Source of the DNA: an uncultured Opitutales bacterium
Lineage (GTDB): Bacteria; Verrucomicrobiota; Verrucomicrobiia; Opitutales; Intestinicryptomonadaceae
Reading direction: 5' to 3'
DNA: 32,000 nucleotides
NCBI GenBank assembly: GCA_934660865.1
Contig: CAKUIA010000017.1
Location: forward strand, 30,001-62,000
Part shown: piece by piece, positions 1 to 32,000 of the stretch
How positions within the stretch are numbered: the first letter of the stretch is position 1
Layout of the letters: each line of letters begins with the position of its first letter
Position numbers and translations under genes: made by a program
Notes under the pieces: generated by a model
Database searches by the model: none
The model's input: the letters and a program-made list of their open reading frames with translations, nothing else
Told to the model about the DNA's origin: nothing

Positions 1-271
1 ATTCCTTTCATTGCTGCGTTTTTTGCATAATATTTAAAAAGCAGTTTTTATGTATTGATACAAAAAACAGGGGCAATGCAAGGCTCGAAAGCCTGTTTAA
101 TATATTGGGCATTCCGTCTAGAATGGCGTTTGGCGAACAAGATATAGAAAGGCTTATCCGCGAAAAAATCGATTTCGACAAAGTGGATAAAAATTTGGGC
201 ATTTTAAGGGATAAATCAGTCGGGTTTCTTGGCGCGGCGTTAGGCCGAAATATCTAAGATTTTAAAAAGTT

Positions 272-3425: not shown

Positions 3426-3442
3426 AGAATGCTTAAATTTTT

Positions 3443-4330
3443 ATGAATACATTAAAAAGATTTATATTGAAATTTTTAAATGCCTGCATTTTGTTTTCGG
3501 AAAACTTCAAGAAGAAAATTCCCGTTACAATTCCCGTATTTAACGGAAATTTGCTTGACGGCCGCACCGCGTTGATAACGGGCGGCACACAGGGAATAGG
3601 CTTTGCCGTTGCCGACGCATTTGTTAAAAACAATGCAGCGGTTGTAATTACGGGCAGAAACCTTGAACGCATAAACACCGCTTTAAACGCCTTAAAAAGC
3701 GGCAATCCGGGAAAGTCCGACAAAATTTTCGGCATTGTAATGGACGTTTCAAAACCCGAACTATTCGACGCAAAGATAGACGAAATTTCGCGGCTAATAG
3801 GCGGACAAAAAATTGATATTTTGGTGAACAATGCGGGGATAATGCGCGGCTCTTTCGAAAACGCGACCGAAAACGATTTTAACGAAGTATTAAACACAAA
3901 TGTAAAGGGCACATTTTTCCTTTCGCGCACCATGGCAAAATATATGGTAAAAAATAAAATCGCGGGCAATATCCTTAATGTTGCGTCTTCCTCCAGCCTA
4001 AGGCCTGCAATTTCGCCGTATACGCTGTCGAAATGGAGCATTAGGGGAATGACAATGGGGCTTGCGAAATCTTTGATAAAATATAACATTGTCGTAAACG
4101 GCATAGCCCCGGGGCCCACGGCAACACCTTTGCTTGTAAACCCAATGCAGGAAAGCATTTCGTGCAAAGAATCGCCAAGCAAACGCTTTGCAACTTCGCA
4201 GGAAATTGCAAATATGGCCGTGGTTTTAACAAGCGACCTCGGCAAAATGGTAGTAGGCGACATTGTCTATATGACGGGCGGTTGCGGGAATTTAACCTAC
4301 GACGACATAAACTACGATATAAACCTTTAA
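3443..4330 (+). CDS. Short-chain dehydrogenase/reductase (SDR) family oxidoreductase
   Basis: 295 aa. Contains 'ALITGGTQGIGFA' (TGxxxGxG), 'NNAG' and 'YTLSKW' (YxxxK). It has a ~40-aa N-terminal extension before the Rossmann motif, so an internal start is possible. Confidence 0.85.
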   Translation: MNTLKRFILKFLNACILFSENFKKKIPVTIPVFNGNLLDGRTALITGGTQGIGFAVADAFVKNNAAVVITGRNLERINTALNALKSGNPGKSDKIFGIVMDVSKPELFDAKIDEISRLIGGQKIDILVNNAGIMRGSFENATENDFNEVLNTNVKGTFFLSRTMAKYMVKNKIAGNILNVASSSSLRPAISPYTLSKWSIRGMTMGLAKSLIKYNIVVNGIAPGPTATPLLVNPMQESISCKESPSKRFATSQEIANMAVVLTSDLGKMVVGDIVYMTGGCGNLTYDDINYDINL

Positions 4331-4339
4331 AAGCATTTT

Positions 4340-5383
4340 ATGCAAAAGGCGGTTTTCGACAAGTTCGCTTTCCTGGCATTTTATATGTCGCTGCTGGTAG
4401 TCGGCATACACCTTTGTGTCGACACATTTTATAAATTCGATTTCAACAATCCCGCAGATGTGGTTGTCTACAATCAAATTTATTTTGTACGCAACGTATT
4501 GGCTTTAATTGCGGTTCCAATGTTTTTTATAAAGTCGGGAATTTTGTTCTTTTACAATTTTACGCCCAAAGATTATTTCAGAAAAATTAAACGAAGGTTT
4601 TCTTCCATATTTATACCGTTTTGCGTTTGGAATGTGCTTTGCTATTTATTTGATTTAACGGTTTGCAATTTTCCGCTTACGGCAAAATTCATACAAAACA
4701 GAAGCGTAGATTTCGGCCTGTCGGAATTTTTTTGCGCCGCATTTTTTTACACAAACAATCCCGTAAACTGGTTTTTGTTTCAGTTGATGTTTTTTGCGGT
4801 AATTTCGCCCGTATTCTATTATTTGGCGAAAAACGTTTATGTTGCGGGAGCCGTTATTTTTATATGCCTTTGCGATATTGCGTGTGTAAACAAATTCTTC
4901 GAACAATTTCATTTGCTGTATTTTTCGGTGGCGTTCGGCGTGTATTTGTTCGGAGCCGTAATCGGAATGCACTATAAACAACTTTTAGGCACAGTATATA
5001 AAACGGGCGCTGTCGCAATTAGCTGGGCGGCTTTTGCATTGTTTTTATTGGCAATATTCTATGTAAGAACGCATAATATTGCGATAATTCCCGTAAATTT
5101 CCTAAAAATGGGCGCAATTATAAGTTTGTGGATTGGATTGAGCAGGGCGAAAATTTCCCCAAAATGGTACTATGGGGCGTCTTTTATAATTTACGAATCG
5201 CAGGTAATTGTAGCTTCGGCAATCTTAAAAGTAATTTTAATTTTACTGCCAAATAACAGCTTTTTTGCAGCGCTTAATTTCTACGCAACCATAGCGTTAA
5301 GCGCGCTTGTAAGCATTTGCATTTATAGCTTGGCAAAAAAATATTTCCCTAAAATCTTTGCATGCCTAAACGGCGGCCGGTAG
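4340..5383 (+). CDS. Acyltransferase-3 family membrane protein (probable glycan O-acetyltransferase)
   Basis: 347 aa with ~10 predicted TM helices and no soluble domain. Size, topology and position inside a polysaccharide locus fit the Acyl_transf_3 family. The call rests on architecture and context rather than a sharp motif. Confidence 0.55.
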   Translation: MQKAVFDKFAFLAFYMSLLVVGIHLCVDTFYKFDFNNPADVVVYNQIYFVRNVLALIAVPMFFIKSGILFFYNFTPKDYFRKIKRRFSSIFIPFCVWNVLCYLFDLTVCNFPLTAKFIQNRSVDFGLSEFFCAAFFYTNNPVNWFLFQLMFFAVISPVFYYLAKNVYVAGAVIFICLCDIACVNKFFEQFHLLYFSVAFGVYLFGAVIGMHYKQLLGTVYKTGAVAISWAAFALFLLAIFYVRTHNIAIIPVNFLKMGAIISLWIGLSRAKISPKWYYGASFIIYESQVIVASAILKVILILLPNNSFFAALNFYATIALSALVSICIYSLAKKYFPKIFACLNGGR

Positions 5384-5415
5384 TTTTTTTAACGTAGCTT
5401 TTATTAAGCGCCAAC

Positions 5416-5443
5416 AAGGCAAATTTTTATATAAATTTGCCTT
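5416..5443 (+). terminator. Perfect 11-bp inverted repeat hairpin downstream of the acyltransferase gene
   Basis: AAGGCAAATTT-ttatat-AAATTTGCCTT lies 33 nt after the stop at 5383. No clean T-run follows (TATAATCC), so it could be a terminator or an operator-like palindrome. It marks the left edge of the AT-rich islet. Confidence 0.35.
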
Positions 5444-5621
5444 TATAATCCATAAAAACAATTCCTTTTCAAAAGACAGGCTTTTTGAGACACATAACAG
5501 CATATAAATATCTCATTGATTTATAGTATATTACAAAAATTAAAACTAAAGCCTTGTTTGTCGCACAAGGTATATTATGTCTACTTGCATAACATAGGTT
5601 GACTTTCTATAAAAGATTTCT

Positions 5622-6272
5622 ATGCTCGCCAGAGTGATGAAATTGATATTAAAAGTCCTGCTTGCAATGCTTGTTTCATTTGCTTTTGTATCTGTTGCAA
5701 ACGTATTTCCTGCCGCAAATATTTCAAACGCGGCAAATTTAGATGTTGTAGAAATTCTGTTATGCGAATTGGACAATTCTAAATTTCATTCGCAAATCGA
5801 AAAAATCGAAAATCAATCGATTCCCTACATGCTTACAGAAATTGTTTGGAACGATTGCAAAATGAGCAAAAACGCTGATTTATTGCTTCCGAAAGAATAT
5901 TGTAAAACCGATATTGGTGTATTTTGCTCTAATGAGATGAATTTAAAAGCATTTTCTAAATGTCTATCAAAACTAATATCATTGGGGAAAATGTTGCCAA
6001 CAGGATTGATATCCGGCACCGACTTATTGCCGAACGCCCCAAAAAATTTACCTTTTGCAATTACAAGAATTACCATTTTTAACGGAAAAGAAAAAATCTC
6101 CATTCTTTTCAATGATATAAACTATATTTGGGGAAAGAAAGATATATGTAAGACAAATATGGTTGCAGCTAATGTTAACGCTTTTATAATCGAATATGCC
6201 AATATAATTGCGTCTTTCAACGATACAGAAGCTTTTAATTGTTTCTTCCCTACCCTAAAACTGTATAACTAA
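5622..6272 (+). CDS. Hypothetical exported protein
   Basis: 216-aa ORF with an N-terminal hydrophobic signal-like segment (MKLILKVLLAMLVSFAFVSVANVFPA). I recognise no motif. It lies in the AT-rich islet; an alternative start is at 5637. Confidence 0.45.
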   Translation: MLARVMKLILKVLLAMLVSFAFVSVANVFPAANISNAANLDVVEILLCELDNSKFHSQIEKIENQSIPYMLTEIVWNDCKMSKNADLLLPKEYCKTDIGVFCSNEMNLKAFSKCLSKLISLGKMLPTGLISGTDLLPNAPKNLPFAITRITIFNGKEKISILFNDINYIWGKKDICKTNMVAANVNAFIIEYANIIASFNDTEAFNCFFPTLKLYN

Positions 6273-19628: not shown

Positions 19629-20429
19629 ATGAAAATAATGTGCGCACAAATAGACGTAAAACAGGCCGCCTTTGCCGAAAATCTGCAAAGGGCAAACGAA
19701 TGTTGCGCAAGCGCACACGCAAACAACTGCGATTTGGTTGTTCTGCCCGAAATGTTTACGGGCGGTTTTAACTATGCAAAAAACAGGGCGTTTTTGCGCG
19801 AAAATGCGGATTTTTTTAAAAAGAGCCTGGGCGAAATCGCAAAAAACAATTCCGTTGCCGTTTGCGGCTCTATGCCCGCATTGGCAAACGGCGATTGCGT
19901 AAAAAACAGGCTGCATTTTTTCGACAAAACGGGCTTTGAACTTTGCGCCTACGACAAAATGCACCTGTTTAGCCCCTTTCACGAAGACAAATACATAAGC
20001 AGGGGAACTGCCCCCGTTATTTTAAACGGTTTTTGCGGCTTTAACATAGGGCTTGCAGTTTGCTACGATTTGCGCTTTCCAGAACTTTTCAGGCAAATGG
20101 CGTTTGCGGGGGCAAATATGTTTATTGTTGTAGCCGCCTGGCCGCACCCGAGGCTTGGGCATTTTACTACATTGTGCAGGGCGCGCGCCATAGAAAACCA
20201 GGCATATATGGTTGCGGTAAACCAGTCGGGCACCGAGAATTTCGGCTCTAAAAGCGCAAAATATTTCGGGCTAAGCCAAATTATAGACCCGTGGGGCGAA
20301 GTTCTCGCCTGCGCAAAACAGGACGCACCCGACAATGTTTGCGCCGAAGTTTTCCCCGAAACGGCAACCGAAGTGCGCGAAAAAATACCCGCCTTTAAAG
20401 ACGCATATTTCTACAAAAATTGTAGATAA
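19629..20429 (+). CDS. Carbon-nitrogen hydrolase (nitrilase superfamily, omega-amidase-like)
   Basis: 266 aa. E-K-C triad contexts are 'LVVLPEMF', 'YDKMHLF' and 'IGLAVCYDLRFPELF'. Confidence 0.85.
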   Translation: MKIMCAQIDVKQAAFAENLQRANECCASAHANNCDLVVLPEMFTGGFNYAKNRAFLRENADFFKKSLGEIAKNNSVAVCGSMPALANGDCVKNRLHFFDKTGFELCAYDKMHLFSPFHEDKYISRGTAPVILNGFCGFNIGLAVCYDLRFPELFRQMAFAGANMFIVVAAWPHPRLGHFTTLCRARAIENQAYMVAVNQSGTENFGSKSAKYFGLSQIIDPWGEVLACAKQDAPDNVCAEVFPETATEVREKIPAFKDAYFYKNCR

Positions 20430-20487
20430 AGACGGCGCATATTGTCGAATTGCATAAAGGCTGCATTGCAGCGCAAATTCCGCATTT

Positions 20488-20976
20488 CTATTCTTTTGCG
20501 GAGGCTTTTTCGGGCAAAATAACCTTCGCTTTTGCCGAAAATTCCACATAGCCGCATACATGCGAATTGCCCGAAATTTCGCTTGTTGTTTTTGTGTCGT
20601 ACAAATTGCTGTAGTACTGCGTGCTTTGCGTTGCGTTTTCGGCGTTTTCGTTGGCGCAGGCCGAGCTTGCATAAAACATTGCAATGCTTGTAAGCATAAG
20701 CGAAAACACGGCGGCCCACTCCAGCGCAACCTGCTTTGGGTTTTCCTTTTTTGCCTTTTCGGGCAAAACCCCCTCTACAGGCAGCGGCGCAAACTTTGGT
20801 TTTTTTCCGTATATTTTGCACGACGCCATATATATTCGGCAATTTTCGTAAAATATGTTGGCAAATTCGGGGTTTTCCCTTATCGCCGACACCAAAAGGC
20901 GAAGCTCCTCGCAGGTAGCTTCGCCGTCTAGGTAAGAGCTTACAATCTCCTGAAACCTGTTTTTAGAAAGCGCCAT
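20488..20976 (-). CDS. Single-pass anti-sigma factor (cognate to the upstream ECF sigma)
   Basis: 162 aa, starting 2 nt after the sigma gene stop. The N-terminus 'IVSSYLDGEATCEELRLLVSAIRENPEF' looks like an anti-sigma N-domain. One TM helix (VALEWAAVFSLMLTSIAMFYA) is followed by a short extracytoplasmic tail. Confidence 0.55.
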   Translation of the reverse strand: MALSKNRFQEIVSSYLDGEATCEELRLLVSAIRENPEFANIFYENCRIYMASCKIYGKKPKFAPLPVEGVLPEKAKKENPKQVALEWAAVFSLMLTSIAMFYASSACANENAENATQSTQYYSNLYDTKTTSEISGNSHVCGYVEFSAKAKVILPEKASAKE

Positions 20977-20978
20977 TC

Positions 20979-21557
20979 CTATTTTTCGGCGTTAAGCTTT
21001 TCCCTTAAAAAGTCTCTTGCGCGCGACAATCTGCTTTTTACGGTGCCAACCCCTATGTTCAGTTTTTCGGCAATCTCTTCGTACGAAAGGTCGTCTTCGT
21101 TCCTAAGTTTTAAAACCTGGGCGTAAATTTCGGGCATTTGCGCCATTGCCCTGGGCAAAAACTCTTCAAGCTCGTTGGTAATGTTGGCCTCGCTGGGAGT
21201 TTGCATTTCGCATTTAATAACATCGCCAAAGGTTATGCTTGCGCCATCGTCGCCCAAAACGGGCTCTTCAAACGAAACGCTTGCGTGCCTTTTTCTGCGC
21301 CACCAATACCAGCTTTTATTTTTGGCCAAATTAGTGGCAATGCGGTACAGCCAGGTAGACAAAGCGCAGTCGCCCCTAAAATTCGAGATTGAATTTCGGG
21401 CTTTAATAAAGGTGTCTTGGGCAACTTCCTCGGCGTCCTGCCTGTTGTTTAGTATTTTGTTTGCCTGATTTAACACCATAGCGTAGTTGTCCGAAACAAG
21501 CTTTCCGAAAGCCTTTTCGTCTCCGCAACGCAATTTAGTAAGTACTGTATCTTCCAT
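20979..21557 (-). CDS. ECF-type RNA polymerase sigma-70 family factor
   Basis: 192 aa. Region 2 reads 'DAEEVAQDTFIKA...STWLYRIATNLAKN'. The region 4 HTH reads 'LSYEEIAEKLNIGVGTVKSRLSRAR'. Confidence 0.85.
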   Translation of the reverse strand: MEDTVLTKLRCGDEKAFGKLVSDNYAMVLNQANKILNNRQDAEEVAQDTFIKARNSISNFRGDCALSTWLYRIATNLAKNKSWYWWRRKRHASVSFEEPVLGDDGASITFGDVIKCEMQTPSEANITNELEEFLPRAMAQMPEIYAQVLKLRNEDDLSYEEIAEKLNIGVGTVKSRLSRARDFLREKLNAEK

Positions 21558-21713
21558 ATATCTTTGTTATGCGGTTATCATAGCACTTAAGCTGACAACC
21601 CGTCAATAGTTTTTGGACAATTTATTTTCGTATTTGTTCGAAATAATTTGCGTTTTCTATTGTAATTAATCTCTCAAATAGTTTAAATTGCTTCGAAATA
21701 TATCGCATGTAGT
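21558..21713. promoter_or_regulatory. Divergent promoter region between the ECF sigma gene and the GTPase operon
   Basis: 156-nt AT-rich intergenic spacer between divergently oriented start codons. I could not assign specific -35/-10 boxes by eye. Confidence 0.4.
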
Positions 21714-23453
21714 ATGAAATTTTTTGGAAACTCAAAGAAATCAATCGGAAGAAAAGCCGTTTTGTTAAACTGCATAAACGGGCAAATTTCGCAGGCGGAC
21801 GAATTTCCCGCAAAAATAGGCGATTCGGAAAATTGCGCGCTAAAGGCAAACGAAGTGTTCGAAGCCCTGGAGCTTTCCTGCGGGCAATCGGAGGGCTTTA
21901 CATTAGGCAGGTGCTCCGACGACAGCGTTCTTATAAATTCAAAAGTTCCCGAAACCGAAACGGTTGTGGAAAACGGCGAATGTACAATACAGTTTTCAAA
22001 CGGCCTGTATATGCTATTTTGCGGCGAAAACGCCCTTAAAAAAGCGCAAAACATAGATTTGTCGCGCTGGTTTTTGTTCGACGCAATAAACGGCCGAATA
22101 GAAGACGAAGTTCCCTTTGTTTCGCTTAAAAACTCGGTTGTAAAGCGCGGGCTAACGGGCGCAGGCTTGGCCATAGCCCCCAAGGGGGCCGATTTGGGCT
22201 TTTTCTATTCGCAGGTATTTAACGAAGGCAGCGCCGATGTAGCTTTAGACGTTGCCCCCGTTTCGTACAACTCGCATGCGATAACCTGCCCCATGTGCTA
22301 TTTAAGCTTCGACATAGGCGACGCGCTAAGCATAGCCTCGCACGAAAGCCTTAGGGGCGACACCGTTTTAGGCCCCGACGAAATGCTTAGGTTTTTACCC
22401 GTTTCGTTCAACGAGCACGGCATTGCCCTAGACCCTATGGGGCTGCCCGCCCCCGACATTGCGTGTCCGCACTGCCGCAAAAAACTGCCGTCGGGCTTTT
22501 TGGATTTAGACGCAAAAATATTTTCGATTGTAGGCGCGCCAAGTTCGGGCAAGTCGTATTATTTAAGCGTGCTTATTAAAGAGCTTAAAGACGTTTTGGC
22601 CCAGCGTTTCGGCGTAAGCTTTAAAGACCTAGACCCTAGCGGCAATATGATGCTTACATTGATGAAAAACAAGCTCTTTTCGGCCACAACAAGCACCGAC
22701 GCAATACTGGCAAAGACTGCTTTTGAAGGCGCAATGTACGAAAAATACCCGCGCTTCGGCAAAATGGTGGCTTTGCCAAAACCGCTAACCTACTCTATTT
22801 CAAACGAAAAGATTTCCGACAAAGCCCTTGTGTTCTACGACAATGCAGGCGAGCATTTCGAGCCCGGCATAGATTTGGAGGACTCGCCGGGGGCAATGCA
22901 CGTTGCAAGCAGCGCCGCAATATTCTTTCTTTTCGACCCGGCCTCGAACAGGGGCTTTAAGGAAAAGCTGCGCGACCACCCCGACCCACAGCTTAAAATC
23001 AAGGGCCGCGTAGACCAGCAAGACACCATTATGTCGGAAATGGAAGTTCGCATTAAGCGAATTTCGGGAATGGAATCGGCCGCAAAAATAAAGAAGCCGC
23101 TTGCCGTTATAATAAACAAATTCGACATTTACAAAGACCTTTTAGACGGGCCTTTGCAAGACTACTATAAAGACGGTGCGCTGGACCTTTCGGCGGTAAA
23201 AAACAACAGCGATAAGATAAGAAAATTTATGATGGCAACCGAGCCTTCAATAGTGTCTACCGCCGAGTCGCTTTCCGAAAACACAATGTTCTTTGCCGTA
23301 AGCCCGCTTGGGCATACCCCCATAAAGATAGAAAGCGGCGAATGCGCGGGCATGATTGCCCCCGACATAGAAAAGCTAAACCCGATGTATGTGGAAGTTC
23401 CCACAATTTGGGCGATAAGCCAAACAATAGACGGGCTAATTAAAACCGTATAG
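21714..23453 (+). CDS. Multidomain TRAFAC-type P-loop GTPase with an N-terminal beta-rich module, a GYF-like segment and a split CPxC...CPxC zinc ribbon
   Basis: 579 aa. G1 is 'GAPSSGKS' (nt 22533-22556), G3 is 'FYDNAGE' (DxxG, nt 22839-22853) and G4 is 'IINKFD' (NKxD, nt 23115-23126). 'CPMC' (nt 22287-22298) and 'CPHC' (nt 22464-22475) lie ~55 aa apart, directly upstream of G1. Confidence 0.75.
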   Translation: MKFFGNSKKSIGRKAVLLNCINGQISQADEFPAKIGDSENCALKANEVFEALELSCGQSEGFTLGRCSDDSVLINSKVPETETVVENGECTIQFSNGLYMLFCGENALKKAQNIDLSRWFLFDAINGRIEDEVPFVSLKNSVVKRGLTGAGLAIAPKGADLGFFYSQVFNEGSADVALDVAPVSYNSHAITCPMCYLSFDIGDALSIASHESLRGDTVLGPDEMLRFLPVSFNEHGIALDPMGLPAPDIACPHCRKKLPSGFLDLDAKIFSIVGAPSSGKSYYLSVLIKELKDVLAQRFGVSFKDLDPSGNMMLTLMKNKLFSATTSTDAILAKTAFEGAMYEKYPRFGKMVALPKPLTYSISNEKISDKALVFYDNAGEHFEPGIDLEDSPGAMHVASSAAIFFLFDPASNRGFKEKLRDHPDPQLKIKGRVDQQDTIMSEMEVRIKRISGMESAAKIKKPLAVIINKFDIYKDLLDGPLQDYYKDGALDLSAVKNNSDKIRKFMMATEPSIVSTAESLSENTMFFAVSPLGHTPIKIESGECAGMIAPDIEKLNPMYVEVPTIWAISQTIDGLIKTV

Positions 23454-23462
23454 GGCAAAACA

Positions 23463-24767
23463 ATGGCATACGAATTGATTTACACAAGTTTGCCCTCGGG
23501 CATTATGGCGGGTCGCTCGGGCTTTTGCGTTGCAGCCTACACCGAAAATATGCCCGAAAGGCTGGTTTTAATGGTCGAAAAATTCAGCAATTTCGACCAT
23601 TGCGGCATTTCCGAAAAATATTCGCTAAACAAGCTTTGCCATTCCAATATAGACTATTATGTGCTAACGCGTTCGGCCGATTGCGGCAAAGACTATACGG
23701 GGCGCACAAACTTCATTTCGCACCATTTGGTTTTGTCGGCAAACGAAATCGCAAAATATCCGAACCCAGCCGACATTCTTTTGCACTACAACTGGCTAAA
23801 TTCCTACACAAAAGCCCCGCAAAAAATAAAGGAGCCGCCCGATTTGTCGAAAATACCGTTCGAAAAGCACGTTCCCTGCAAAACTTGGGGCGAAATTTTT
23901 AAAGACGCAGGCGTTGCGGCTTTCCCCCGCATAAAGGACGATTGCGAAATATACGCTTCAAAGCAGTTCTCCCAAAAAACCATACTAAAGCTTTTTGCCG
24001 AATCTTTGGCGCTAACGGTAAACGGCAAATCGGCGTGGAGCTACACGTTTACAACGGCTTTGGGCTCAAGCGAGGTTGCGTTGTCGTATAAATGGAAAGT
24101 TTTCGCTAACCGTTCAAAAGATTCGAGAAACCCGAACGCCATAGATTTGGATTTGCAAAAAGCCCCCTCTTTTGCCGAATGCAGGCTAAGCGAATATGCA
24201 AGAAGCGGCGTTTTAACCAAAGCCGAAGCCCTGTCGCTTACCGCCGCAAAACCGAAAAAAGCCAACACCAAATTTACGGTTGTAAACACAAAGCCCGAAC
24301 GCACATTCCAGCCTATATATGTATATTCGGTTGTAATCGCCATATTGTGCTCGCTAATTGTTGTTTTGGCCTTTTCGCTGCTGGGCGGCAACAATGCCGA
24401 CGAATACGAAGACTACCCCGAATACGGCGGCGAATCTTTTGCGCAAATAGCAAAAAGGATAGACAACGCCATTGCCCGCAACGACTATTCTTCGGCCTCG
24501 GCAATTTGGTTCGGCTACGAAAACAGGGAAATCAGAAAAGACTACATATCCTTTGTAAATTCGAAAATAAGAAACTCGATAGCCGAAAACTTGCGGGATT
24601 TTGAAAACGCGCTAAATAGTTCCGACACTATAAGCCAAAAACAGGTAGAGAAAATGACAAAAGCGTGCTCAAACGCCGAAAAATACCTCGAAAAGAGCGA
24701 CTTTCCCGACAAAAAATCGCTTTTAAAACGCACAAAACGCCTGCTAGAGCAACTTTCGAAAGAATAA
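23463..24767 (+). CDS. Bitopic membrane protein with a GAP1-like (GTPase-associated protein 1-like) N-terminal domain
   Basis: 434 aa, starting 9 nt after the GTPase stop. 'MAYELIYTSLPSGIMAGRSGFCVAAYTENMP' resembles the YTS...G...GF-x-x-A-x-(S/T) N-terminal signature I remember for GAP1-N domains. One TM helix spans aa ~285-308 (nt ~24315-24386), with a basic flank before it and an acidic flank after it. The ~125-aa C-terminal tail is helical. Confidence 0.5.
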   Translation: MAYELIYTSLPSGIMAGRSGFCVAAYTENMPERLVLMVEKFSNFDHCGISEKYSLNKLCHSNIDYYVLTRSADCGKDYTGRTNFISHHLVLSANEIAKYPNPADILLHYNWLNSYTKAPQKIKEPPDLSKIPFEKHVPCKTWGEIFKDAGVAAFPRIKDDCEIYASKQFSQKTILKLFAESLALTVNGKSAWSYTFTTALGSSEVALSYKWKVFANRSKDSRNPNAIDLDLQKAPSFAECRLSEYARSGVLTKAEALSLTAAKPKKANTKFTVVNTKPERTFQPIYVYSVVIAILCSLIVVLAFSLLGGNNADEYEDYPEYGGESFAQIAKRIDNAIARNDYSSASAIWFGYENREIRKDYISFVNSKIRNSIAENLRDFENALNSSDTISQKQVEKMTKACSNAEKYLEKSDFPDKKSLLKRTKRLLEQLSKE

Positions 24768-24770
24768 TTT

Positions 24771-27518
24771 ATGAACTGCCAACTTTTAATAGTAAAAATA
24801 CAGTCGCTTTTAAACGGCAAAAGCATACCGAACGAAAGCGAAATAAAAAGCCTGTGCGACGAATACAACGCCGTGCGCAATATGTGCGCCGACAGGCTAC
24901 AGCGGTGCGTTGCCCTTATTCGCTCGAACAGGGACTATTTGGCCTTGCAGATTGCCGAAAGCGAACCGCCGGTTTTGGACACAATAAACCTGCTTGAATT
25001 TAAGGGCCTGCCCGAATGGCGCGCGCTGTGCGGCGAATACAACGCCGAATGTGCCCCCGATTTCGACGGATATTACATAGAGCTTTTGCAGTCGCTATAC
25101 ACAAAGGACATAGGTCAAAACCACCCTCTTTACAGAGACTACCGCAGGGCAATGCGCAGCCGCAACTACGACGACGCGCTTAAAATAATCAAGACAATTT
25201 CGCGCATAAATTCGAATAACAACGACATTAAAGCCGAATATGTGCGCCTGCTAAAAAGCCGGGTAAACGAAAAGCTGGCCGAAATAAAAACCGCCCTGCA
25301 AAACAACGACGCAGAGCGAGCCTTAAAGCTGTTCGCCTTTTTGGACGCAAACAGCTCGGAATTCGACACCGACAGCGACAGCTGGCGCGAAGTCTGCCAA
25401 AAAATCGGCGAGCTTAAACTTCAAAACGCAAAGGACGGCGCAAAAGACATTGTGCGCCGCCTAGGCGTGGTAGATGTGGAAAAAGACTACCGCGAGGCAA
25501 TCTCGCTTTTCAACGAATTAAAGCTGCTTGTGTCGGAATATCCCGACATAGTTTCGCAAGGCGATTTGGACAAAGCCGAAGCCCTGAAAAACAAAGCCTT
25601 TGTTTTGAAGGACGAACGCGAAAAAACGGAACTTTCCGCCAGGGCCAAAACGGCGGCGCTTTTGGCTTTCGAAAGCGATTCAAAAAAGGGCAAAACCCTT
25701 GCGCAAAGACTGGCAGACTTTACCGAATTGCAAAACAAATACGGCAAATATTTCGACGAAAATACGGCAAAAAAAGTTTCCCAAAAAGTTTCGTCTATAA
25801 AGCACGCCTTAAAGATAAAACGCCTTGCAAAGCTGGCGCTTGCGTGTTGTGCCCTTGCATTTTTGGCCGTTTGCGCCGCGCTTTGGCGCAATAACAGCGT
25901 AAAAAACGGGCGCGTAAATTCGGCAAAGTCCGAAATCTTAAAAATGCAAAATCTGCAAAGCATAGGCGAAATAAAAAATTCGCTTGCGTATTTCGGCAAA
26001 CAATATGCCGAATTTGCTCCTCAATTTGAAAGGGAAATTGCAAACGCCGAAAACACCCTGCAAATGCTCGAAAGCAGAAAGGCGAAGATAGAAAAATCGC
26101 TGGAAAGTTTGGGGAAAATTAAAGCCGACACCATAAATTCGAGCACTTTTAAGGCGGCTAACGCCGAATTTGCGGCTTTGGAAGAAAGCGCGCAAAAGCT
26201 TCCCCCGCTCGACGAAAGCGAAATCTCCGAAAAAATACAGGCCACAAAACGCCGCTTCGGCATTTTAATGGACACCGTAAAAAACTCTTTCGAAAGGGAA
26301 TTTTCGGCTGCGGCTAACGATGTAGAAAACTGCCTTTCGGCGGTTTCGAGCGACTACGGCAAAAGCTTCGAAAAATCGGTAGTCGAGTTGGGCGCGAAAG
26401 TAAAAACGCTAAAAGACATTGTTGAAAAATATTCTAGAATAGTGCCTTTGCACCCCCTAAACCAGACAAAATACAACGACTATATTTCGAAATATACCGC
26501 ATTTACCGTAAGGCTGCACGACATTAAAAACGCGGAAAACGCGATAAGCAACGCGCGTTCGCTGGACGAGTTTTATTCGGCCCTAACCCAGTTGTCGGCA
26601 ATAAACCCGCTGCCCGAGCGCTTTGCAAAAAACATAAAAATTGCCCAGTCGCAAAAAGAAAGCCTCCTTTACGGCGACTTGGCCGAAAAAATCGGAAAGA
26701 GCGCCTTTAAATGCGCAGGCAAAGAATTTTCCTTCGCCAAAATAGACCTCCTAAACGAATGGGAACAGCTATTCGACATATACGAATATGCCGATAAAGA
26801 CGGCAAAAAAGTGTATACAAGCAAAATCCTTAAGGAAAGAACCAACGAATGGCCCGGCGGCTACGAAATCATACAAACCGGGCGCCAGTTTTCGCGCGAC
26901 GGCTCGCTAAGGCACATATTGCGCCGCAAGCTTGTTTCGGGCGCGTACGTTAAGGTAAACGAGCTTCTTGCTGGCAAAACCCCCGCAAAGGAATCGCTAT
27001 TTTTGGCAAATTTGGCGCGCAAACGCCCCTCTTTGCCCGAAGCTTTAAACGCAATAGCAAATGCCGACATTAACGGTGCATTTAAAGCCTATCTCGAATA
27101 CTCGCTTTTTACCGCCCCGAATACCGACGACATTTCAAGCGGAACCGCATATTCCGAAAGCGCTATGGCGCGCAAACGCCTGGTACTCGAAAAAGCCGCC
27201 GACCTTGCTCCGCTTTCTTGGCTGTATGCCGACAAGGCCAAAGTAGACGACATTAACTTTGCCCTATATTCGCAAAAATCGCCCGACTACCTAAAGGAGG
27301 CAACCGAAACAAAAAACCTTGCAAAGACAATGCTCGAAAACCCGAAAATTTTTGTAGGCTATGCCGACGAGCTTTCGGTTGCGCATTTTTGCGGCGAAAA
27401 CAGCGGCACAATTTTCGGGATTTCGGCCGCAAACGGCAAAGTTGTTGTTATATACGAAAACGGCAAGCTGGTGGAAAAACCCGCAATATTTTCGCCCCTG
27501 CTAAAGGCGCATAAATGA
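24771..27518 (+). CDS. Large (915 aa) bitopic, predominantly alpha-helical protein of unknown function
   Basis: Starts 3 nt after the previous stop. It has a single TM helix (LAKLALACCALAFLAVCAALW, aa ~352-372, nt ~25824-25886). The composition is K/E/A/L-rich and coiled-coil-like on both sides of the TM. I see no catalytic motif. Confidence 0.6.
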   Translation: MNCQLLIVKIQSLLNGKSIPNESEIKSLCDEYNAVRNMCADRLQRCVALIRSNRDYLALQIAESEPPVLDTINLLEFKGLPEWRALCGEYNAECAPDFDGYYIELLQSLYTKDIGQNHPLYRDYRRAMRSRNYDDALKIIKTISRINSNNNDIKAEYVRLLKSRVNEKLAEIKTALQNNDAERALKLFAFLDANSSEFDTDSDSWREVCQKIGELKLQNAKDGAKDIVRRLGVVDVEKDYREAISLFNELKLLVSEYPDIVSQGDLDKAEALKNKAFVLKDEREKTELSARAKTAALLAFESDSKKGKTLAQRLADFTELQNKYGKYFDENTAKKVSQKVSSIKHALKIKRLAKLALACCALAFLAVCAALWRNNSVKNGRVNSAKSEILKMQNLQSIGEIKNSLAYFGKQYAEFAPQFEREIANAENTLQMLESRKAKIEKSLESLGKIKADTINSSTFKAANAEFAALEESAQKLPPLDESEISEKIQATKRRFGILMDTVKNSFEREFSAAANDVENCLSAVSSDYGKSFEKSVVELGAKVKTLKDIVEKYSRIVPLHPLNQTKYNDYISKYTAFTVRLHDIKNAENAISNARSLDEFYSALTQLSAINPLPERFAKNIKIAQSQKESLLYGDLAEKIGKSAFKCAGKEFSFAKIDLLNEWEQLFDIYEYADKDGKKVYTSKILKERTNEWPGGYEIIQTGRQFSRDGSLRHILRRKLVSGAYVKVNELLAGKTPAKESLFLANLARKRPSLPEALNAIANADINGAFKAYLEYSLFTAPNTDDISSGTAYSESAMARKRLVLEKAADLAPLSWLYADKAKVDDINFALYSQKSPDYLKEATETKNLAKTMLENPKIFVGYADELSVAHFCGENSGTIFGISAANGKVVVIYENGKLVEKPAIFSPLLKAHK

Positions 27519-27901
27519 AAAAATACAAAGTATATTGGAAAGGCCGCATTGTGGGCGAATACGGCCGCGCCGAAATTTTGGCTGCGCTAAACTACGGCAA
27601 GCTAGGCATGCTGCATTCGGTAGACTTGGGCAACGGCGAAATTGTGCCCATGCAAAGCTTTGTGGATTTGCAGCAAATTGCCGACAGCAAACCGCAAACT
27701 TCGCCTGCAGCGGTTTTGGCCGCCTATTTCCTTAGCGGATTGTGTTTTTTGGGCTGGCCGTTTTTGGCGGTTTTTGCGCCATACTGTTATTGGATATACC
27801 GCAAAGGGCAAAAAAAGGCGGCAGCCTACACTTTGGTTTTGTCGTTGGCGTTTTCGGTATTGGGCGCGCTTTTCTTTTATATAATGGGTAAACTCGGCTA
27901 A
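27515..27901 (+). CDS. Small membrane protein: GYF_2-like N-terminal domain plus two TM helices
   Basis: 128 aa. Its ATG overlaps the upstream stop (ATGA). 'YKVYWKGRIVGEYGRAEILAALNYGKLGMLHSVDLGNGEIVPMQSFVDL' follows the GYF_2/DUF4339-like pattern (aromatic...G-x-(Y/P)...E-I/L...G-x-L...V...G-x-x-W/V-x-P...F-x-x-L). Two hydrophobic helices follow. Confidence 0.5.
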   Translation: MKKYKVYWKGRIVGEYGRAEILAALNYGKLGMLHSVDLGNGEIVPMQSFVDLQQIADSKPQTSPAAVLAAYFLSGLCFLGWPFLAVFAPYCYWIYRKGQKKAAAYTLVLSLAFSVLGALFFYIMGKLG

Positions 27902-28005
27902 AAAAATTCCGTTTAAACTCATATTATGCTTGCAAAGGCAACCGTTTTATAAAAAATCTTTCAACACATATCAAATATAACTTACTAAACAATTTTAAAA
28001 AGATT

Positions 28006-28569
28006 ATGAAAAAACTATACGCAGTTTCCTTAATGTTGGCGGCAATGTTTATGCTTTCGGCTTGCGAATCGTGGGACAACCCCTCGCCTTCCGATACTAA
28101 CGCAGCCATGGGTTCGGCCGACAAAAACGGCAACTTGCCCGACGGCTCGTACGGCGCCGACGCCGAAGGCCTTAAAGGTCGCGGCATTAACTCGCTAGAC
28201 GGTTTTGACCCCAACAACATCAATCCCGAAGATATCGTTTGCACGGTTTACTTCGGTTTCGACCAGTATGCAATTCCCGCCTCCGAAAGGGGCAAATTGA
28301 AGGAAGCGGCTCAATTCTATTCGGCCAACCCCAATGTTAAAACGGTTTTGGTAGGCCGCACCGACTGGTACGGCACCGAAGAATACAACCTTTTGCTTTC
28401 CGACAAAAGGGCTTCGGCTGTTAGCGAATATTTGGAAACAAACGGCGTAAACGCCGCCAATATGGAAAGACTTCCCGTAGGCGAAGCAAACGCAACCCCC
28501 GATGTCGATAAAAATTCGCCCCAGGCAAAGCAAGACCGCAGGGTTGAAATTGTAAAACTTACAAAATAA
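28006..28569 (+). CDS. pal: Peptidoglycan-associated lipoprotein, OmpA_C family (Pal-like)
   Basis: 187 aa. 'LAAMFMLSAC-ES' is a lipobox. OmpA_C blocks are 'VYFGFDQYAI', 'LVGRTDWYGTEEYNLLLSDKRASAV' and 'DRRVEIV'. No tol genes are adjacent, so the symbol is tentative. Confidence 0.75.
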   Translation: MKKLYAVSLMLAAMFMLSACESWDNPSPSDTNAAMGSADKNGNLPDGSYGADAEGLKGRGINSLDGFDPNNINPEDIVCTVYFGFDQYAIPASERGKLKEAAQFYSANPNVKTVLVGRTDWYGTEEYNLLLSDKRASAVSEYLETNGVNAANMERLPVGEANATPDVDKNSPQAKQDRRVEIVKLTK

Positions 28570-28590
28570 GCCCATAGCTAAATTTACCCA

Positions 28591-28621
28591 AAAAGCCGCG
28601 CCCATTGGTGCGGTTTTTTTG
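28591..28621 (+). terminator. Rho-independent terminator after pal-like gene
   Basis: The sequence is AAAAAGCCGCgcccattggtGCGGTTTTTTT. The hairpin is short, with one G-U pair, and is followed by a T7 run. It is followed by GTGCCCGTAAAAA; see the finding on the repeated module. Confidence 0.5.
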
Positions 28622-28720
28622 TGCCCGTAAAAATCGGGTTATTTGCATAAAATTTACTTTACTAAGCTTTATAATTTCTATAGCGTAAACCCTTACACGT
28701 TTACCAACAATATTAGTTAA

Positions 28721-30316
28721 ATGAATCTTAAAAAATTCTGTATATATACCGCGGCGCTTTGCTCGGCTTTGTCGGCATTTGCGCTGGAAAACCTAATTCC
28801 CGAAACCCCGCAAAAAAATTCCATGAACACCTGGTGCACATGGGGTTCGCAAAGCAATGTTATAGGCCGATATAAAGACCGCATAAAAAGAGGCAAAACC
28901 GTGCCCGACTATGCGAAAGACATTACAAAAGTTTCGCAGCGCGACGGCATTAACGAGGAAACCGTTTTCGGCGAAAACGGCTGGGCAAAAAATTGGGGCG
29001 GTATTAGGAAAGACTGCTACTTTATTTTGGACGACGGCTGGGACGTTGGCTATTACGAAAGACCCGCAGTAAACATTTCGGTTTTCGGCTCGCACATATT
29101 AAACGAAACAAGGTTTCCCTCGGTTAAGGGAATGTCGCCGCAGGAAAGGCTAAAATGGCTAAACGACAAGCTTGTTGCCAACGGCTGGCTTGGCGGCGCG
29201 CTGTGGATTAGCGCGCAAAAATTCGGCGAAAACTACGGGCGCAACAAAATTAGCCCCGAAAACCAAATCGAATTTTGGAAAGAACGCATTGCCTGGAGCA
29301 AATACGCAAATATAAGGTATTGGAAAGTAGACTGGGGAATACACTGTCTTGATGTCGGCTTTAGGAAAATGCTTACAAAGCTTGCCGCAAAAGAGTTCCC
29401 CGAACTGATTATAGAAAACGCGTATCCCGCACTGCCGGCAAACTTTATAAACAACATACAATTCAAAGACGGTAAGTATTTCGGCGACGGCAAATTTGCC
29501 AATACTCCGCGCAAAGAGCTGGACAAGCTCGACGAAATTTTGGAGTTTTCCACCCTGTTTAGAACCTACGACACCTACGGCAATTCGGTTACCTTAGACC
29601 GTTGTGTATACGAGCTAAATTTCGGCTACGAAGAACAGCTTAATTTGTTTTTAACCTGCGAAGACAACCCCAAAATTGGAGCCGGCCTTGCAAGCTTTTG
29701 CGGCGAAATGAGGGCTATAGACCACAGGCGCGCGCGCGAATTTACGGCCTTTATCCACTGGCAAAGGATAGCGCCCGCCTTGGCGGCAAAAGATTTGCCG
29801 ATTAAAGTTTCAAACGAAAGGCTTAGCGAATTTAAAAAAGTAAGGAATTTGCCCGACGCTTTCAAAAAACGCACCGACCAAAGTTTGCCGCCCATCGAAC
29901 AAAGCGCTCCCGCGGTTATCGTAAGGGGCAATATGGATTTGCCCGAAGTTAAAGTTGCCCAAAAAGACGCCTTGCAACCCTACGTTTTGGCCACAAAACA
30001 CACCAACGCAACCTTGTGCGTGTCTTTTGTAGAGCGCGACGAAAACCGCAATTACCAGACAGACACATTTGTAAACGAAAACTGCCTAAACCGCAAAATA
30101 GGAGTGTTCGGGCAATTCAATACGCTTACTTTTACGCTGCCCGACAATACAAAAAACGTAAAAGTTTTTGTGCAGGATTTAACCGAAAAAACGCCCAAAG
30201 AAATTAAAAACTTTTCGGTAAACTACAATAAGCTTACAATAGGTTTCAACGACTTGGGCTTCGAAAAGCTTGCAAAAAAATATCCGGCATTCGTGCTTTT
30301 TGTAAAAAAAGGATAG
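28721..30316 (+). CDS. Exported glycoside hydrolase, clan GH-D-like (alpha-galactosidase-type TIM barrel)
   Basis: 531 aa with signal peptide (IYTAALCSALSAFA-LE). 'NTWCTWGSQ', 'CYFILDDGWD', 'NETRFPS' and 'IRYWKVDWG' parallel the GH27/GH36 blocks (WNSW, DDGW, rFP, YLK-x-D). The specific family is not resolved. Confidence 0.5.
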   Translation: MNLKKFCIYTAALCSALSAFALENLIPETPQKNSMNTWCTWGSQSNVIGRYKDRIKRGKTVPDYAKDITKVSQRDGINEETVFGENGWAKNWGGIRKDCYFILDDGWDVGYYERPAVNISVFGSHILNETRFPSVKGMSPQERLKWLNDKLVANGWLGGALWISAQKFGENYGRNKISPENQIEFWKERIAWSKYANIRYWKVDWGIHCLDVGFRKMLTKLAAKEFPELIIENAYPALPANFINNIQFKDGKYFGDGKFANTPRKELDKLDEILEFSTLFRTYDTYGNSVTLDRCVYELNFGYEEQLNLFLTCEDNPKIGAGLASFCGEMRAIDHRRAREFTAFIHWQRIAPALAAKDLPIKVSNERLSEFKKVRNLPDAFKKRTDQSLPPIEQSAPAVIVRGNMDLPEVKVAQKDALQPYVLATKHTNATLCVSFVERDENRNYQTDTFVNENCLNRKIGVFGQFNTLTFTLPDNTKNVKVFVQDLTEKTPKEIKNFSVNYNKLTIGFNDLGFEKLAKKYPAFVLFVKKG

Positions 30317-30440
30317 TAAAAGCACGGGCAATCAAGGAACGAAAAGGTTTTTTTAGAGCGTTTTGTAGACAAAATTTATATTGACAAAACGGCTTAAAAA
30401 ACCTTTCATTCTTTGGTATATTCAAACTATAACACAGACT

Positions 30441-31199
30441 ATGAAAAAAGCTATAATATCAATCGTATCGTTGTTTGCGGCGTTCTCTTTTGCGAACGCA
30501 CAGCAGCAAGTTAACGTACAACCCGCACAACAGCAAGTTAGTGCTGCACAGCCCGCACAACAACAGGTTGCCCAAAAAGCAAAGCCCGAATTTACATCGG
30601 CTTTGGGTAAAAACTATGTAGGCTTCGGCCTCGGCGGCGGCAATCTCGACGCTGGCATGGGCGGCAATAGCGCAATGTTGGGCGTTGCATTGGAAGGCAA
30701 CATCAATGTATTCCTTTCCGACGACGAAAGCTTCGGTTTGGACGTAAACGTTCCCCTAAAATATAACTTCTACGGCGTAGACGCGGGCGACAACTACCAA
30801 ACATTCAACTTCCCGTTGAATTTCCGCCCCTTCTATAGATTTGTAGCGGCCGAAAACTTTGTAATTACCCCCTATGCCGACTGCGGCTTTGGCGGTATGT
30901 ACTCGCACTTCAACTCCAGAGATGTTGAACCCGACGGTATCAACCTTACCTGGAAATTGGGCGGCGGCGTAGAATTTTCGTTTGCCAAGAACTTCTCGTT
31001 CGCGGCAAAATATTCCTACAACGCAATAGGCGGCAACTACTTCATCTCGCACTACACAACAGTAGGCGGCGAATTTTCGTGGAAATTCTCGTTCCACATG
31101 GTTGCCTCCATCGAATACGGCCACGACTTCTACCCCACCCACTTCACAGGCATAGACGATGCCGACTGGGGTATGCTCAAGCTCCGCTACGAATTCTAA
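30441..31199 (+). CDS. Outer-membrane beta-barrel protein with a Gln-rich N-terminal linker
   Basis: From ATG 30441 the protein begins 'MKKAIISIVSLFAAFSFANA-QQ' (signal peptide). The body shows an alternating-hydrophobic beta-strand pattern and ends 'LKLRYEF' (C-terminal aromatic beta-signal). The TTG-initiated extension to 30381 in the ORF track would bury the signal peptide. Confidence 0.65.
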   Translation: MKKAIISIVSLFAAFSFANAQQQVNVQPAQQQVSAAQPAQQQVAQKAKPEFTSALGKNYVGFGLGGGNLDAGMGGNSAMLGVALEGNINVFLSDDESFGLDVNVPLKYNFYGVDAGDNYQTFNFPLNFRPFYRFVAAENFVITPYADCGFGGMYSHFNSRDVEPDGINLTWKLGGGVEFSFAKNFSFAAKYSYNAIGGNYFISHYTTVGGEFSWKFSFHMVASIEYGHDFYPTHFTGIDDADWGMLKLRYEF

Positions 31200-31249: not shown

Positions 31250-31669
31250 GTGCCCGATAAAAACCTCAACTTTGAAAAAGGCATTGCCCAAAAATTTGCT
31301 AACTCATTAAAGAGGTACTCAAGCGAAAAACATTCTTGATTTTGATTTTTTTTGTGCAAATTACAAAGCTTAGAGACATTCCCTAAATTTACAGCCAAAC
31401 ACAGCTACTACAGTAAGGTTGGTTGCCACCACGTTCCTTTCCTGTTTAATATCCAAGCCGAACAACCTAAAAATATATCTCTGTTTCGTATTCTTTGCCA
31501 CTGAATATCTCCACTGCTAGCATATTGCCAGATACATCTTTTTTGTTGTGAGAGTTTAATAAAGCTGCAGCTTCGCTTTTGGTTAAGAAAGTTCCCATTG
31601 TTCACGTCATACTATTGCAGTTCTCACTTTGGGAGCTTTCTTTATATATTGATATTTAAGGTATCCGTA

Positions 31670-32000
31670 TTTTCAATTCACGCGCTCGCGAGGAGCGCGA
31701 CGATACAGCCTATAGTTGGGACGACGCCGCCCAAATAGTTTCAATTCACGCGCTCGCGAGGAGCGCGACCTCAATTTGTTTAAAATCACTGTTTTTATCT
31801 TCGTTTCAATTCACGCGCTCGCGAGGAGCGCGACATATTCTTTTGCCTCATATTCTTTTGGAGCAAAAGTTTCAATTCACGCGCTCGCGAGGAGCGCGAC
31901 TAACGGTATTTATTCACTCTCTTTTCGCAAAAAGTTTCAATTCACGCGCTCGCGAGGAGCGCGACTTGGCAGAAAGTATATAGCCAAGGTTATGTATTTG
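31670..32000 (-). CRISPR. CRISPR array, type I-C-like repeat, trailer end (truncated by the window edge)
   Basis: Five 32-nt direct repeats lie at 31670-31701, 31738-31769, 31803-31834, 31869-31900 and 31934-31965. Spacers are 36, 33, 34 and 33 nt, plus >=35 nt of a fifth. The plus-strand repeat is GTTTCAATTCACGCGCTCGCGAGGAGCGCGAC. Its reverse complement, GTCGCGCTCCTCGCGAGCGCGTGAATTGAAAC, has the I-C form (GTCGCGC...7-bp stem/5-nt loop...ATTGAAAC). The repeat at 31670 has T instead of G at its first plus-strand base, which makes it a degenerate terminal repeat if the array is read on the minus strand. Confidence 0.9.

Follow-up and report, generated by a model that had tools for sequence, protein, structure and literature searches.

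A probable DO-GTPase2/GAP1-N2 operon with a linked ECF sigma factor in Opitutales, possibly serving envelope signaling

The DNA examined here, termed the window, is a 32,000-nucleotide (nt) stretch of contig CAKUIA010000017.1 from an uncultured gut Opitutales bacterium. It carries a four-gene operon in which a cytoplasmic GTPase is encoded together with three membrane-anchored proteins, and we consider it very probable that this operon is a member or variant of the DO-GTPase2/GAP1-N2 class. The unit is really one of six genes, the operon itself and a divergent extracytoplasmic function (ECF) sigma/anti-sigma pair. The cassette is a chromosomally fixed, Opitutales-wide Verrucomicrobiota variant that is vertically inherited in a non-defense context. 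Because it is stably inherited together with the ECF sigma pair in gut and aquatic Opitutales, it looks more like an envelope-signaling device than a mobile anti-phage system. We hold with moderate confidence that its overall role is envelope or membrane-stress signaling by a trans-envelope GTPase switch, rather than classical anti-phage defense. The class itself is already known, including GAP1-N2 systems with a transmembrane (TM)-anchored GAP1 and GYF-plus-TM partners (PMC7159879). New here are a GTPase with an FHA fold, an undescribed family of 915-amino-acid (aa) proteins, the ECF sigma linkage, and the behavior of the cassette as a stable core module across Opitutales.

The initial annotation had placed four plus-strand open reading frames (ORFs) of 579, 434, 915, and 128 aa at this location, and the ORF list matches it in full. 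Gene 1 (21714..23453) encodes the GTPase, which we assign to the DO-GTPase2 family of TRAFAC GTPases; gene 2 (23463..24767) encodes a bitopic GAP1 protein, gene 3 (24771..27518) a bitopic protein of the undescribed family, and gene 4 (27515..27901) a GYF_2-type adaptor domain joined to a two-segment membrane module. The claimed spacings were also borne out. Gene 2 starts 9 nt downstream of gene 1 and so directly adjoins the GTPase, genes 2 and 3 are 3 nt apart, and genes 3 and 4 share a 4-nt ATGA overlap. A 156-nt divergent region lies between the sigma start (21557) and the start of gene 1, and the gap of about 100 nt said to precede pal is 104 nt, followed by an OmpA/Pal-like lipoprotein gene at 28006. 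Gene 1 has zero hydrophobic TM segments, and the TM helices attributed to the other three products are found at residues 290 to 308 of gene 2, 352 to 370 of gene 3, and 66 to 84 and 107 to 125 of gene 4. We computed dN/dS (omega) against two close relatives, at gene and domain resolution. The four ORFs of the operon and the divergent pair are all genuine genes, because their order is kept in about 80 other genomes and their dN/dS is 0.04 to 0.18. A scan of 20400 to 28800 for sigma-70 promoters and terminators gave no signal above the shuffled expectation and was uninformative.

Membership in the class is seen most directly in gene 2. Its N terminus had been likened to that of GAP1 proteins, and residues 1 to 129 match Pfam GAP1-N2 (PF20013) with an E value of 2.9e-18 and 66.7 bits against a cutoff of 24. 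All 35 gene 2 orthologs match the same family, and R18, G20, E39, D77, and R81 are invariant among them. Behind this domain comes a divergent GAP1-M-like region (residues ~130 to 250), then the TM segment, and finally a helical tail at residues 309 to 434. GAP1-M was matched by only 2/35 orthologs (2.1e-5). GAP1-C was never detected in this set, and the TM segment and tail stand in its place. Applied to the 35 orthologs, the positive-inside rule makes it likely that the GAP1-N2 domain is cytoplasmic and the tail periplasmic. The shortest ortholog, at 307 aa, stops just behind the TM segment and lacks a periplasmic tail, and the longest reach about 1,250 aa (examples are L001 11748-12671, L009 7884-10004, L082 9661-13407, and L083 11793-15572, where L numbers denote loci of our distribution scan). 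The large periplasmic extensions of these orthologs had no Pfam match.

Gene 1 had been read as a TRAFAC GTPase with a Zn-binding module, and its motifs, the Pfam matches of its orthologs, and the Foldseek fold agree on the GTPase assignment, with conserved Cys knuckles as the candidate Zn module. The motifs GAPSSGKS (274 to 281), DNAGE (376 to 380), and NKFD (468 to 471) are present as claimed. Among 37 orthologs, G274, P276, G279, K280, D376 to E380, K469, and D471 are invariant, while N468 of the G4 motif varies and is mostly Gly. The Walker-B Glu that is diagnostic of the DO-GTPase family (hhhhDxxGE; here FYDNAGE) is invariant in the same set, as is GAPSSGKS. PF19993 (DO-GTPase2) was matched by 36/37 orthologs (best E value, 8.7e-7), and DO-GTPase1 by a single one (E value, 0.007). 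Each locus encodes one GTPase gene.

The AlphaFold2 (AF2) model of gene 1, with a predicted local distance difference test score (pLDDT) of 78, divides the protein into an FHA-fold domain (residues 15 to 103), a small alpha/beta domain (107 to 170), a linker, a Zn-knuckle region, and the G domain (267 to 579). Foldseek placed the G domain with atlastin/GBP, EF-Tu, and G-alpha at a probability of 1.0; a profile search of the PDB with the GTPase alignment returned no match. The N-terminal beta-sandwich superposes on the mycobacterial FHA domain 2lc1 with a Foldseek TM-score of 0.67, and 5/37 orthologs match FHA or Yop-YscD_cpl in Pfam. This domain retains the conserved structural residues N75-G76 and resembles the phospho-independent FHA domains of the YscD type. 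Two invariant knuckles, CPxC192 (CPMC192 in the window) and CPHC251, lie 56 residues apart in a region where the AF2 pLDDT is 50 to 65. Since the two CPxC knuckles supply four Cys, we expect them to form a single four-Cys Zn site. The Zn-knuckle region is the most constrained part of gene 1, with an omega of 0.01.

For gene 4, a GYF-type domain had been suggested, and 15/35 orthologs match GYF_2 (best E value, 1.6e-13). The N terminus of the window protein aligns to the signature WKGxxSGPxSxxEI...GxIGLxH, which places the GYF_2-type domain at residues ~1 to 55, ahead of the two membrane segments. Across the family the GYF domain is constant and the membrane module is swapped by clade, with a 2-TM version in the gut clade, a 3-TM version in the freshwater clade, and RDD and CD225 versions elsewhere. 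The distant versions comprise proteins with two GYF copies and RDD (E value, 6.8e-21), of which the cassettes in L082, L083, and L089 are instances with an RDD TM region, and a CD225/IFITM-like form (E value, 9.8e-24). These swapped modules are found at L082 16914-18029, L083 19054-20151, L089 12356-13492, and L090 16020-16691.

We also looked among the operon partners for a proline-rich ligand of the GYF domain, and this candidate was set aside: such runs occur inconsistently, the window has none, and they often fall beyond the GAP1 TM segment, in the periplasm. Proline-rich runs, some of them pure poly-Pro, flank the TM segment in 16/35 GAP1 orthologs (for example, residues 288 to 315 in L054, 287 to 313 in L065, and 258 to 278 in L005), and none occurs in the window copy. 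These runs could be GYF ligands, though they are found on either side of the membrane.

Gene 3 belongs to no described family that we could find. The protein comprises a helical, TPR-like region (residues 1 to 350), the TM segment, a helical bundle (372 to 650), and an alpha/beta C-terminal domain (655 to 915), and its AF2 model (pLDDT, 85) is helical and alpha/beta. Its N terminus is likely cytoplasmic and its ~545 C-terminal residues likely periplasmic, as judged by the positive-inside rule in the orthologs. It is this N-in orientation that would put both the GAP1 tail and the C-terminal part of gene 3 in the periplasm. Residues 1 to 170, which hold the motif HPLYRDYRRAMR, are the most constrained part, and their omega of 0.05 makes them as constrained as the GTPase. 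None of the 41 gene 3 orthologs matches any Pfam family. A PDB profile search gave only compositional coiled-coil and apolipoprotein matches, and Foldseek only generic TPR and helical repeats with TM-scores of <0.1, so that no PDB relative was found by sequence or by fold. A word-indexed homolog search with the N-terminal 192 aa recovered one fragment only. An exhaustive hidden Markov model (HMM) search recovered 282 clusters (50% identity) at an E value of ≤1e-30, nearly all of 900 to 1,070 aa and aligned over their full length. From this number of clusters, their near-uniform length, and their end-to-end alignment, we conclude that gene 3 represents a coherent undescribed family.

The DO-GTPase/GAP1 systems were described computationally by Kaur, Burroughs, Iyer, and Aravind (eLife 2020; PMC7159879), who distinguished two GTPase-centric types, GAP1-N1 and GAP1-N2. 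The N1 type has GASH as an all-helical partner, two GTPases, and enzymatic effectors, and is mutually exclusive with the N2 type. The N2 type has a zinc ribbon (ZnR)-GTPase, usually with two ZnRs, a GAP1-N2 protein that is often fused to a TM segment, and a rapidly evolving FNIII-repeat protein; a planctomycete subtype adds a GYF-pair protein fused to trypsin or to a TM-rich region (PMC7159879). N2 systems were reported in verrucomicrobia and planctomycetes, and ~900 organisms with GAP1-N2 were counted (PMC7159879). All of these systems were assigned to biological conflict, their core being constant and their periphery variable, with a link to the multicellular habit (PMC7159879). The text of the eLife supplement does not list Opitutales or Coraliomargarita, and for GTPase-centric systems the main text is silent on both sigma factors and FHA.

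The initial annotation had cast the operon as a membrane-embedded variant of this theme. The class membership stands, as GAP1-N2 with DO-GTPase2, and the proposed correspondence to the GASH-containing N1 type does not, since the domain here is N2. In particular, gene 3 had been offered as the all-helical GASH partner. GASH belongs to the N1 type, and none of the 41 gene 3 orthologs matched it at an E value of ≤0.01. What remains in common with GAP1-N1/GASH is the general theme of a DO-GTPase, a GAP1 protein, and a third constant component. In contrast to that type, the window has an N2 domain and one GTPase; GASH, GAAD, and EAD were not detected, and none of its calcineurin, TIR, PNPase, or SLATT effectors is present.

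Like the DO-GTPase2/GAP1-N2 systems (PF19993, PF20013, and PF20014), the window operon has a TRAFAC GTPase with the Walker-B Glu and a putative N-terminal Zn module, a GAP1-N2 gene right after the GTPase, a C-terminal TM segment on GAP1, and TM-rich partners. It differs in its single GTPase, which has the extra FHA-fold domain and one four-Cys site instead of two ZnRs, and in the ~915-aa bitopic helical and alpha/beta protein that replaces the FNIII-repeat protein. No FNIII protein was found among the 41 gene 3 orthologs (for which this identity is thus ruled out), GAP1, gene 4, or the top 25 Pfam families of the flanks. The window system further departs from the class description in that GAP1-C is undetected, in having no tubulin, HSP70, or kinase modules, and in its ECF sigma/anti-sigma linkage and stable vertical inheritance in non-defense contexts. 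With the planctomycete GAP1-N2/GYF subtype it shares a GYF-membrane protein encoded in one operon with the GTPase and GAP1-N2 and, in the distant cassettes of L082, L083, and L089, the two GYF copies. The window and gut Opitutales versions have a single divergent GYF domain and a minimal 2-TM module, without trypsin.

The distribution of the cassette was determined with one genome per GTDB species, and 82 non-redundant loci were scored with HMMs for the six genes; the counts for each gene include only loci with enough sequence to judge. At least 399 GTDB species have a relative of this GTPase. Apart from two evidently mislabeled bins, the 80 best matches all come from Verrucomicrobiota, mostly from Opitutales, Opitutia, and Puniceicoccales, with some from Verrucomicrobiae and Spartobacteria. 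The two bins (L056 and L064; CAZEDB010000024.1 and CAYYLJ010000006.1) are titled “uncultured Enterobacteriaceae bacterium” and carry the full sigma-GTPase-GAP1-gene 3-gene 4 cassette. With a GTPase 47% identical to that of the window and a cassette of the Opitutales type, this label is almost certainly wrong. Cultured strains with the cassette include Intestinicryptomonas porci Cla-KB-P66 and Puniceicoccaceae Marseille-Q1082.

GAP1 accompanies the GTPase in 71/77 loci, gene 3 in 54/56, and gene 4 in 47/53; the divergent ECF sigma gene is present in 56/75 loci and the anti-sigma gene in 44/74. Whether the genes co-occur beyond this genome had been raised at the outset, and they do, in the same order and with tight spacing in about 80 species with differing flanks. 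When the matrices of pairwise distances were compared among the GTPase, GAP1, gene 3, gene 4, and sigma, they correlated with r values of 0.78 to 0.94 (0.88 for gene 1 and sigma), and thus these genes are inherited together as one unit.

Purifying selection acts on all six genes, to differing degrees. Identity to other genera is 54 to 65% for the GTPase (dN/dS, 0.06 to 0.07) and 56 to 61% for the ECF sigma (0.04 to 0.05). The corresponding values are 25 to 34% for the anti-sigma (0.08 to 0.10), 30 to 51% for GAP1, with 51% in the closest genome (0.14 to 0.16), 29 to 31% for gene 3 (0.14 to 0.15), and 28 to 30% for gene 4 (0.18). We found no diversifying selection at domain resolution, with no domain near an omega of 1. 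The partners are therefore less constrained and not demonstrably under diversifying selection.

The ECF sigma/anti-sigma pair noted beside the operon is supported by Pfam matches. The sigma gene (20979..21557, minus strand, 192 aa) encodes a group 4 factor, is transcribed divergently from the GTPase operon, and matches Sigma70_r2 (1.4e-13), Sigma70_r4_2 (5.1e-17), and TIGR02937 sigma70-ECF (98 bits versus a cutoff of 42.9). The gene for the putative anti-sigma factor (20488..20976, minus strand, 162 aa) encodes an N-terminal domain with RFxELVSxYLDGE, a TM segment at residues 83 to 101, and a short, variable extracytoplasmic tail. Its orthologs match zf-HC2 in 13/24 cases (best E value, 9.9e-5), and the window copy is subthreshold. 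The gene call deposited on the parent contig (L007 5723-6064) is only 113 aa. The 162-aa ORF contains the N-terminal helix RFQEIVSSYLDGE common to all orthologs, and for this reason the deposited start is probably too late.

Upstream of the sigma gene in gut-clade relatives, we identified the motif TGAAAC-N16-18-GTCTA, which lies 15 to 60 nt from the sigma start in 20/51 loci with at most one mismatch. In 1.4 Mb, 22 of the 35 occurrences of this dyad sit upstream of sigma. The window holds a degenerate copy, TCGAAC-N17-GTCCA (21614..21641, minus strand), 56 nt upstream of the sigma start; it has three mismatches and is assigned by position and homology only. Sigma appears to be autoregulated from its own promoter, and the window copy is probably that promoter. 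The pair resembles RpoE-RseA and SigW-RsiW in its group 4 sigma, co-transcribed zf-HC2-type single-TM anti-sigma, and autoregulated promoter of the GAAC...GTC type. Unlike in those systems, the sigma gene is conserved beside a GTPase/GAP1 operon toward which its promoter motif is not directed, no site 1 or site 2 protease partner is evident in the window, and the external part of the anti-sigma is short and poorly conserved. In the sigma-less cassette of L009, the divergent upstream place that the sigma pair takes in other clades is occupied by a gene for a 1,988-aa bacterial alpha-2-macroglobulin (1-5822, minus strand).

An envelope-signaling module linked to the ECF sigma had been the alternative in the initial annotation, and it fares better than the conflict reading, with sigma adjoining the operon in 56 of the 75 loci. 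In this model, GAP1, the 915-aa protein, and the GYF-TM protein would form a trans-envelope platform of three inner-membrane proteins. The soluble FHA-fold/Zn-knuckle GTPase may dock on the cytoplasmic GAP1-N2 domain and the TPR-like domain of gene 3 and act as a nucleotide-dependent switch. The Zn-knuckle region and the cytoplasmic N terminus of gene 3 are the most constrained parts, as would be expected of docking surfaces. The periplasmic portions of gene 3 and GAP1, which evolve fast, would sense a periplasmic or envelope cue and shift the nucleotide or assembly state of the GTPase, whose nucleotide state could set a threshold or timer. The GYF domain would be an adaptor that couples the state of the GTPase to the membrane module by recruiting or controlling it. 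The anti-sigma/ECF sigma pair would be the likely transcriptional partner, as an output or as a co-regulated input.

Two findings from other systems bear on this model. Experiments on GltJ, a membrane protein of Myxococcus gliding motility, showed that its cytosolic, N-terminal GYF domain and its ZnR make up a switch under the control of the GTPase MglA (Sci Adv 2024; PMC11135422), and the PVC group is reported to have many ZnR/GYF proteins, encoded with receptor-like TM proteins (PMC11135422). The window likewise brings together a GYF domain, a Zn module, a GTPase, and a membrane protein, which is an analogy only and not homology of the systems. Here, the Zn module is on the GTPase (gene 1) and the GYF domain on gene 4, and the GTPase is DO-GTPase2 as opposed to the Ras-like MglA. 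We identified no AglZ-like proline-rich partner, as in the GltJ system, among the operon partners, and no motility genes. Additionally, DO-GTPases have been tied computationally to Psp operons and “membrane-related stresses” (PMC11237479).

Several observations count against envelope signaling or against parts of the assignment beneath it. The window GTPase is just under the PF19993 threshold (21.3 bits versus a cutoff of 27) and the window gene 4 is also below its Pfam threshold, so that for both proteins class membership rests on the orthologs. The canonical phosphothreonine-binding residues were not found in the FHA-fold domain of gene 1, in which G36 is not followed by a conserved Arg and the Ser/His are missing. 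The topology of gene 4 is ambiguous by the positive-inside rule, and its membrane module is exchanged between clades, a type of variation that the original authors interpreted as effector diversification. The sigma promoter motif faces the GTPase operon in only 1/51 loci; we looked for an ECF promoter driving the operon and did not find one, and with the motif nearly never facing gene 1, nothing indicates that sigma transcribes it. Coupling of the GTPase complex to the sigma pair at the protein level is pure inference. Moreover, the pair is missing from deeper-branching cassettes, such as L009, L082, and L083, and is thus not essential to the core machine. Our literature search found no experimental work on any DO-GTPase/GAP1 system.

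The reading first given to the operon was that of a conflict system, and an anti-phage or abortive-infection role would have the GTPase/GAP1 pair act as a threshold switch, the envelope-facing parts sense an invader, and the GYF-TM protein disrupt the membrane as effector. Kaur et al. so classified the whole class (PMC7159879), and the cassette has the expected constant core and variable periphery: conservation is far higher in the GTPase than in GAP1, gene 3, and gene 4, the gene 4 membrane module is exchanged among 2-TM, 3-TM, RDD, and CD225 versions, and the GAP1 tails run from ~0 to 900 aa. A CRISPR-Cas I-C locus also lies 3.8 kb away in this genome. However, such adjacency is absent in other genera, and we regard the linkage to the GTPase operon as coincidental. 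A search of PADLOC-DB v2 with the four proteins gave only insignificant partial matches (best, mad8 with an E value of 0.025 and AbiTi with an E value of 0.0085). The expected enrichment next to defense genes did not materialize either; among 103 sampled flanking proteins, only about 4 or 5 had any PADLOC match, some of them generic, and the Pfam families are those of housekeeping genes (NAD kinase, LpxI, TIM, URO-D, purine and tryptophan synthesis, and DnaB). The flanks vary between genera, with conserved housekeeping synteny within subclades (NAD kinase, BrkB, and PNPOx downstream in 21 to 23 loci; PtsI-like, HisC, and HisB upstream in 14 to 17 loci). This synteny, the co-divergence of the unit, and its taxonomy-like gradients are unlike mobile defense islands. 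The fast genes have an omega of only 0.14 to 0.18. As had been stated at the outset, the cassette has no soluble effector, with no recognizable toxin, nuclease, protease, or nucleotide-signal domain. With null PADLOC results, housekeeping flanks, unconserved CRISPR adjacency, vertical inheritance, and purifying selection, the genomic context lends the conflict reading no support, and we judge a role in anti-phage defense unlikely, if still to be reckoned with.

Vertical inheritance and purifying selection on all six genes would also suit a lineage-specific housekeeping envelope machine whose assembly the GTPase regulates, acting in biogenesis, inner-to-outer-membrane tethering, or division and morphogenesis. 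The cassette is widespread and apparently single copy across Opitutales and relatives, and the AF2 model of gene 3 is that of a long coiled-coil protein spanning the periplasm. In both the window and L001, the next gene downstream is OmpA/Pal-like, and LpxI and UppS-type envelope genes are among the flanks. Yet no component matches a known division, secretion, Tol-Pal, Lpt, Bam, or motility family, the OmpA neighbor is not conserved beyond close genera, and the partner proteins diverge much faster than typical core machinery. We find such a machine rather improbable. That four genes are merely adjacent and resemble a GTPase/GAP1 system by coincidence is hardly conceivable; the subthreshold Pfam scores of the window genes 1 and 4 are all that speaks for it, and it is effectively refuted by the conserved order and tight spacing amid differing flanks and by the correlated component distances, with Pfam matches that are consistent at the family level.

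Envelope signaling is therefore the reading that we favor, and one specific form of it concerns the sigma pair. The six-gene unit might constitute an unrecognized mode of ECF sigma control, in which the trans-envelope complex reads the condition of the envelope and, by a GTP-dependent switch, gates the single-pass anti-sigma. We think this form doubtful; if it is true, the DO-GTPase/GAP1 class would have its first demonstrated physiological role outside conflict. The class is widespread yet rests wholly on computational prediction, and this variant alone reaches the at least 399 species given above. Its architecture is unusually clean, a single GTPase being joined by three membrane partners and a linked sigma, without any enzyme effector, and the variant is conserved in abundant gut Opitutales of humans and animals. 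Because of this clean architecture and its presence in cultured strains, the cassette is a tractable entry point to the function of the class. Its core-module-like vertical inheritance questions the blanket label of “conflict system.”

Downstream of the operon, the OmpA/Pal-like gene is followed by a 531-aa ORF (28721-30316, plus strand) that had no Pfam or NCBIfam match and has a conserved counterpart at this position in two close relatives, L011 and L012. The CRISPR array reported about 3.8 kb downstream was located at ~31670 (31668-32000) and runs off the window. It contains at least five copies of the 32-nt repeat GTTTCAATTCACGCGCTCGCGAGGAGCGCGAC with spacers of 33 to 34 nt, and the type I-C genes cas2, cas1, cas4, cas7, csd1, and cas5d lie on the parent contig (L007 17622-22748). 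Ahead of the array is an outer-membrane beta-barrel-type gene (30381-31199, plus strand; OMP_b-brl on the parent contig). Inside this gene, a tandem repeat at 30497-30569, with 2.6 copies of a 27- to 30-nt unit, would encode a short repeated peptide.

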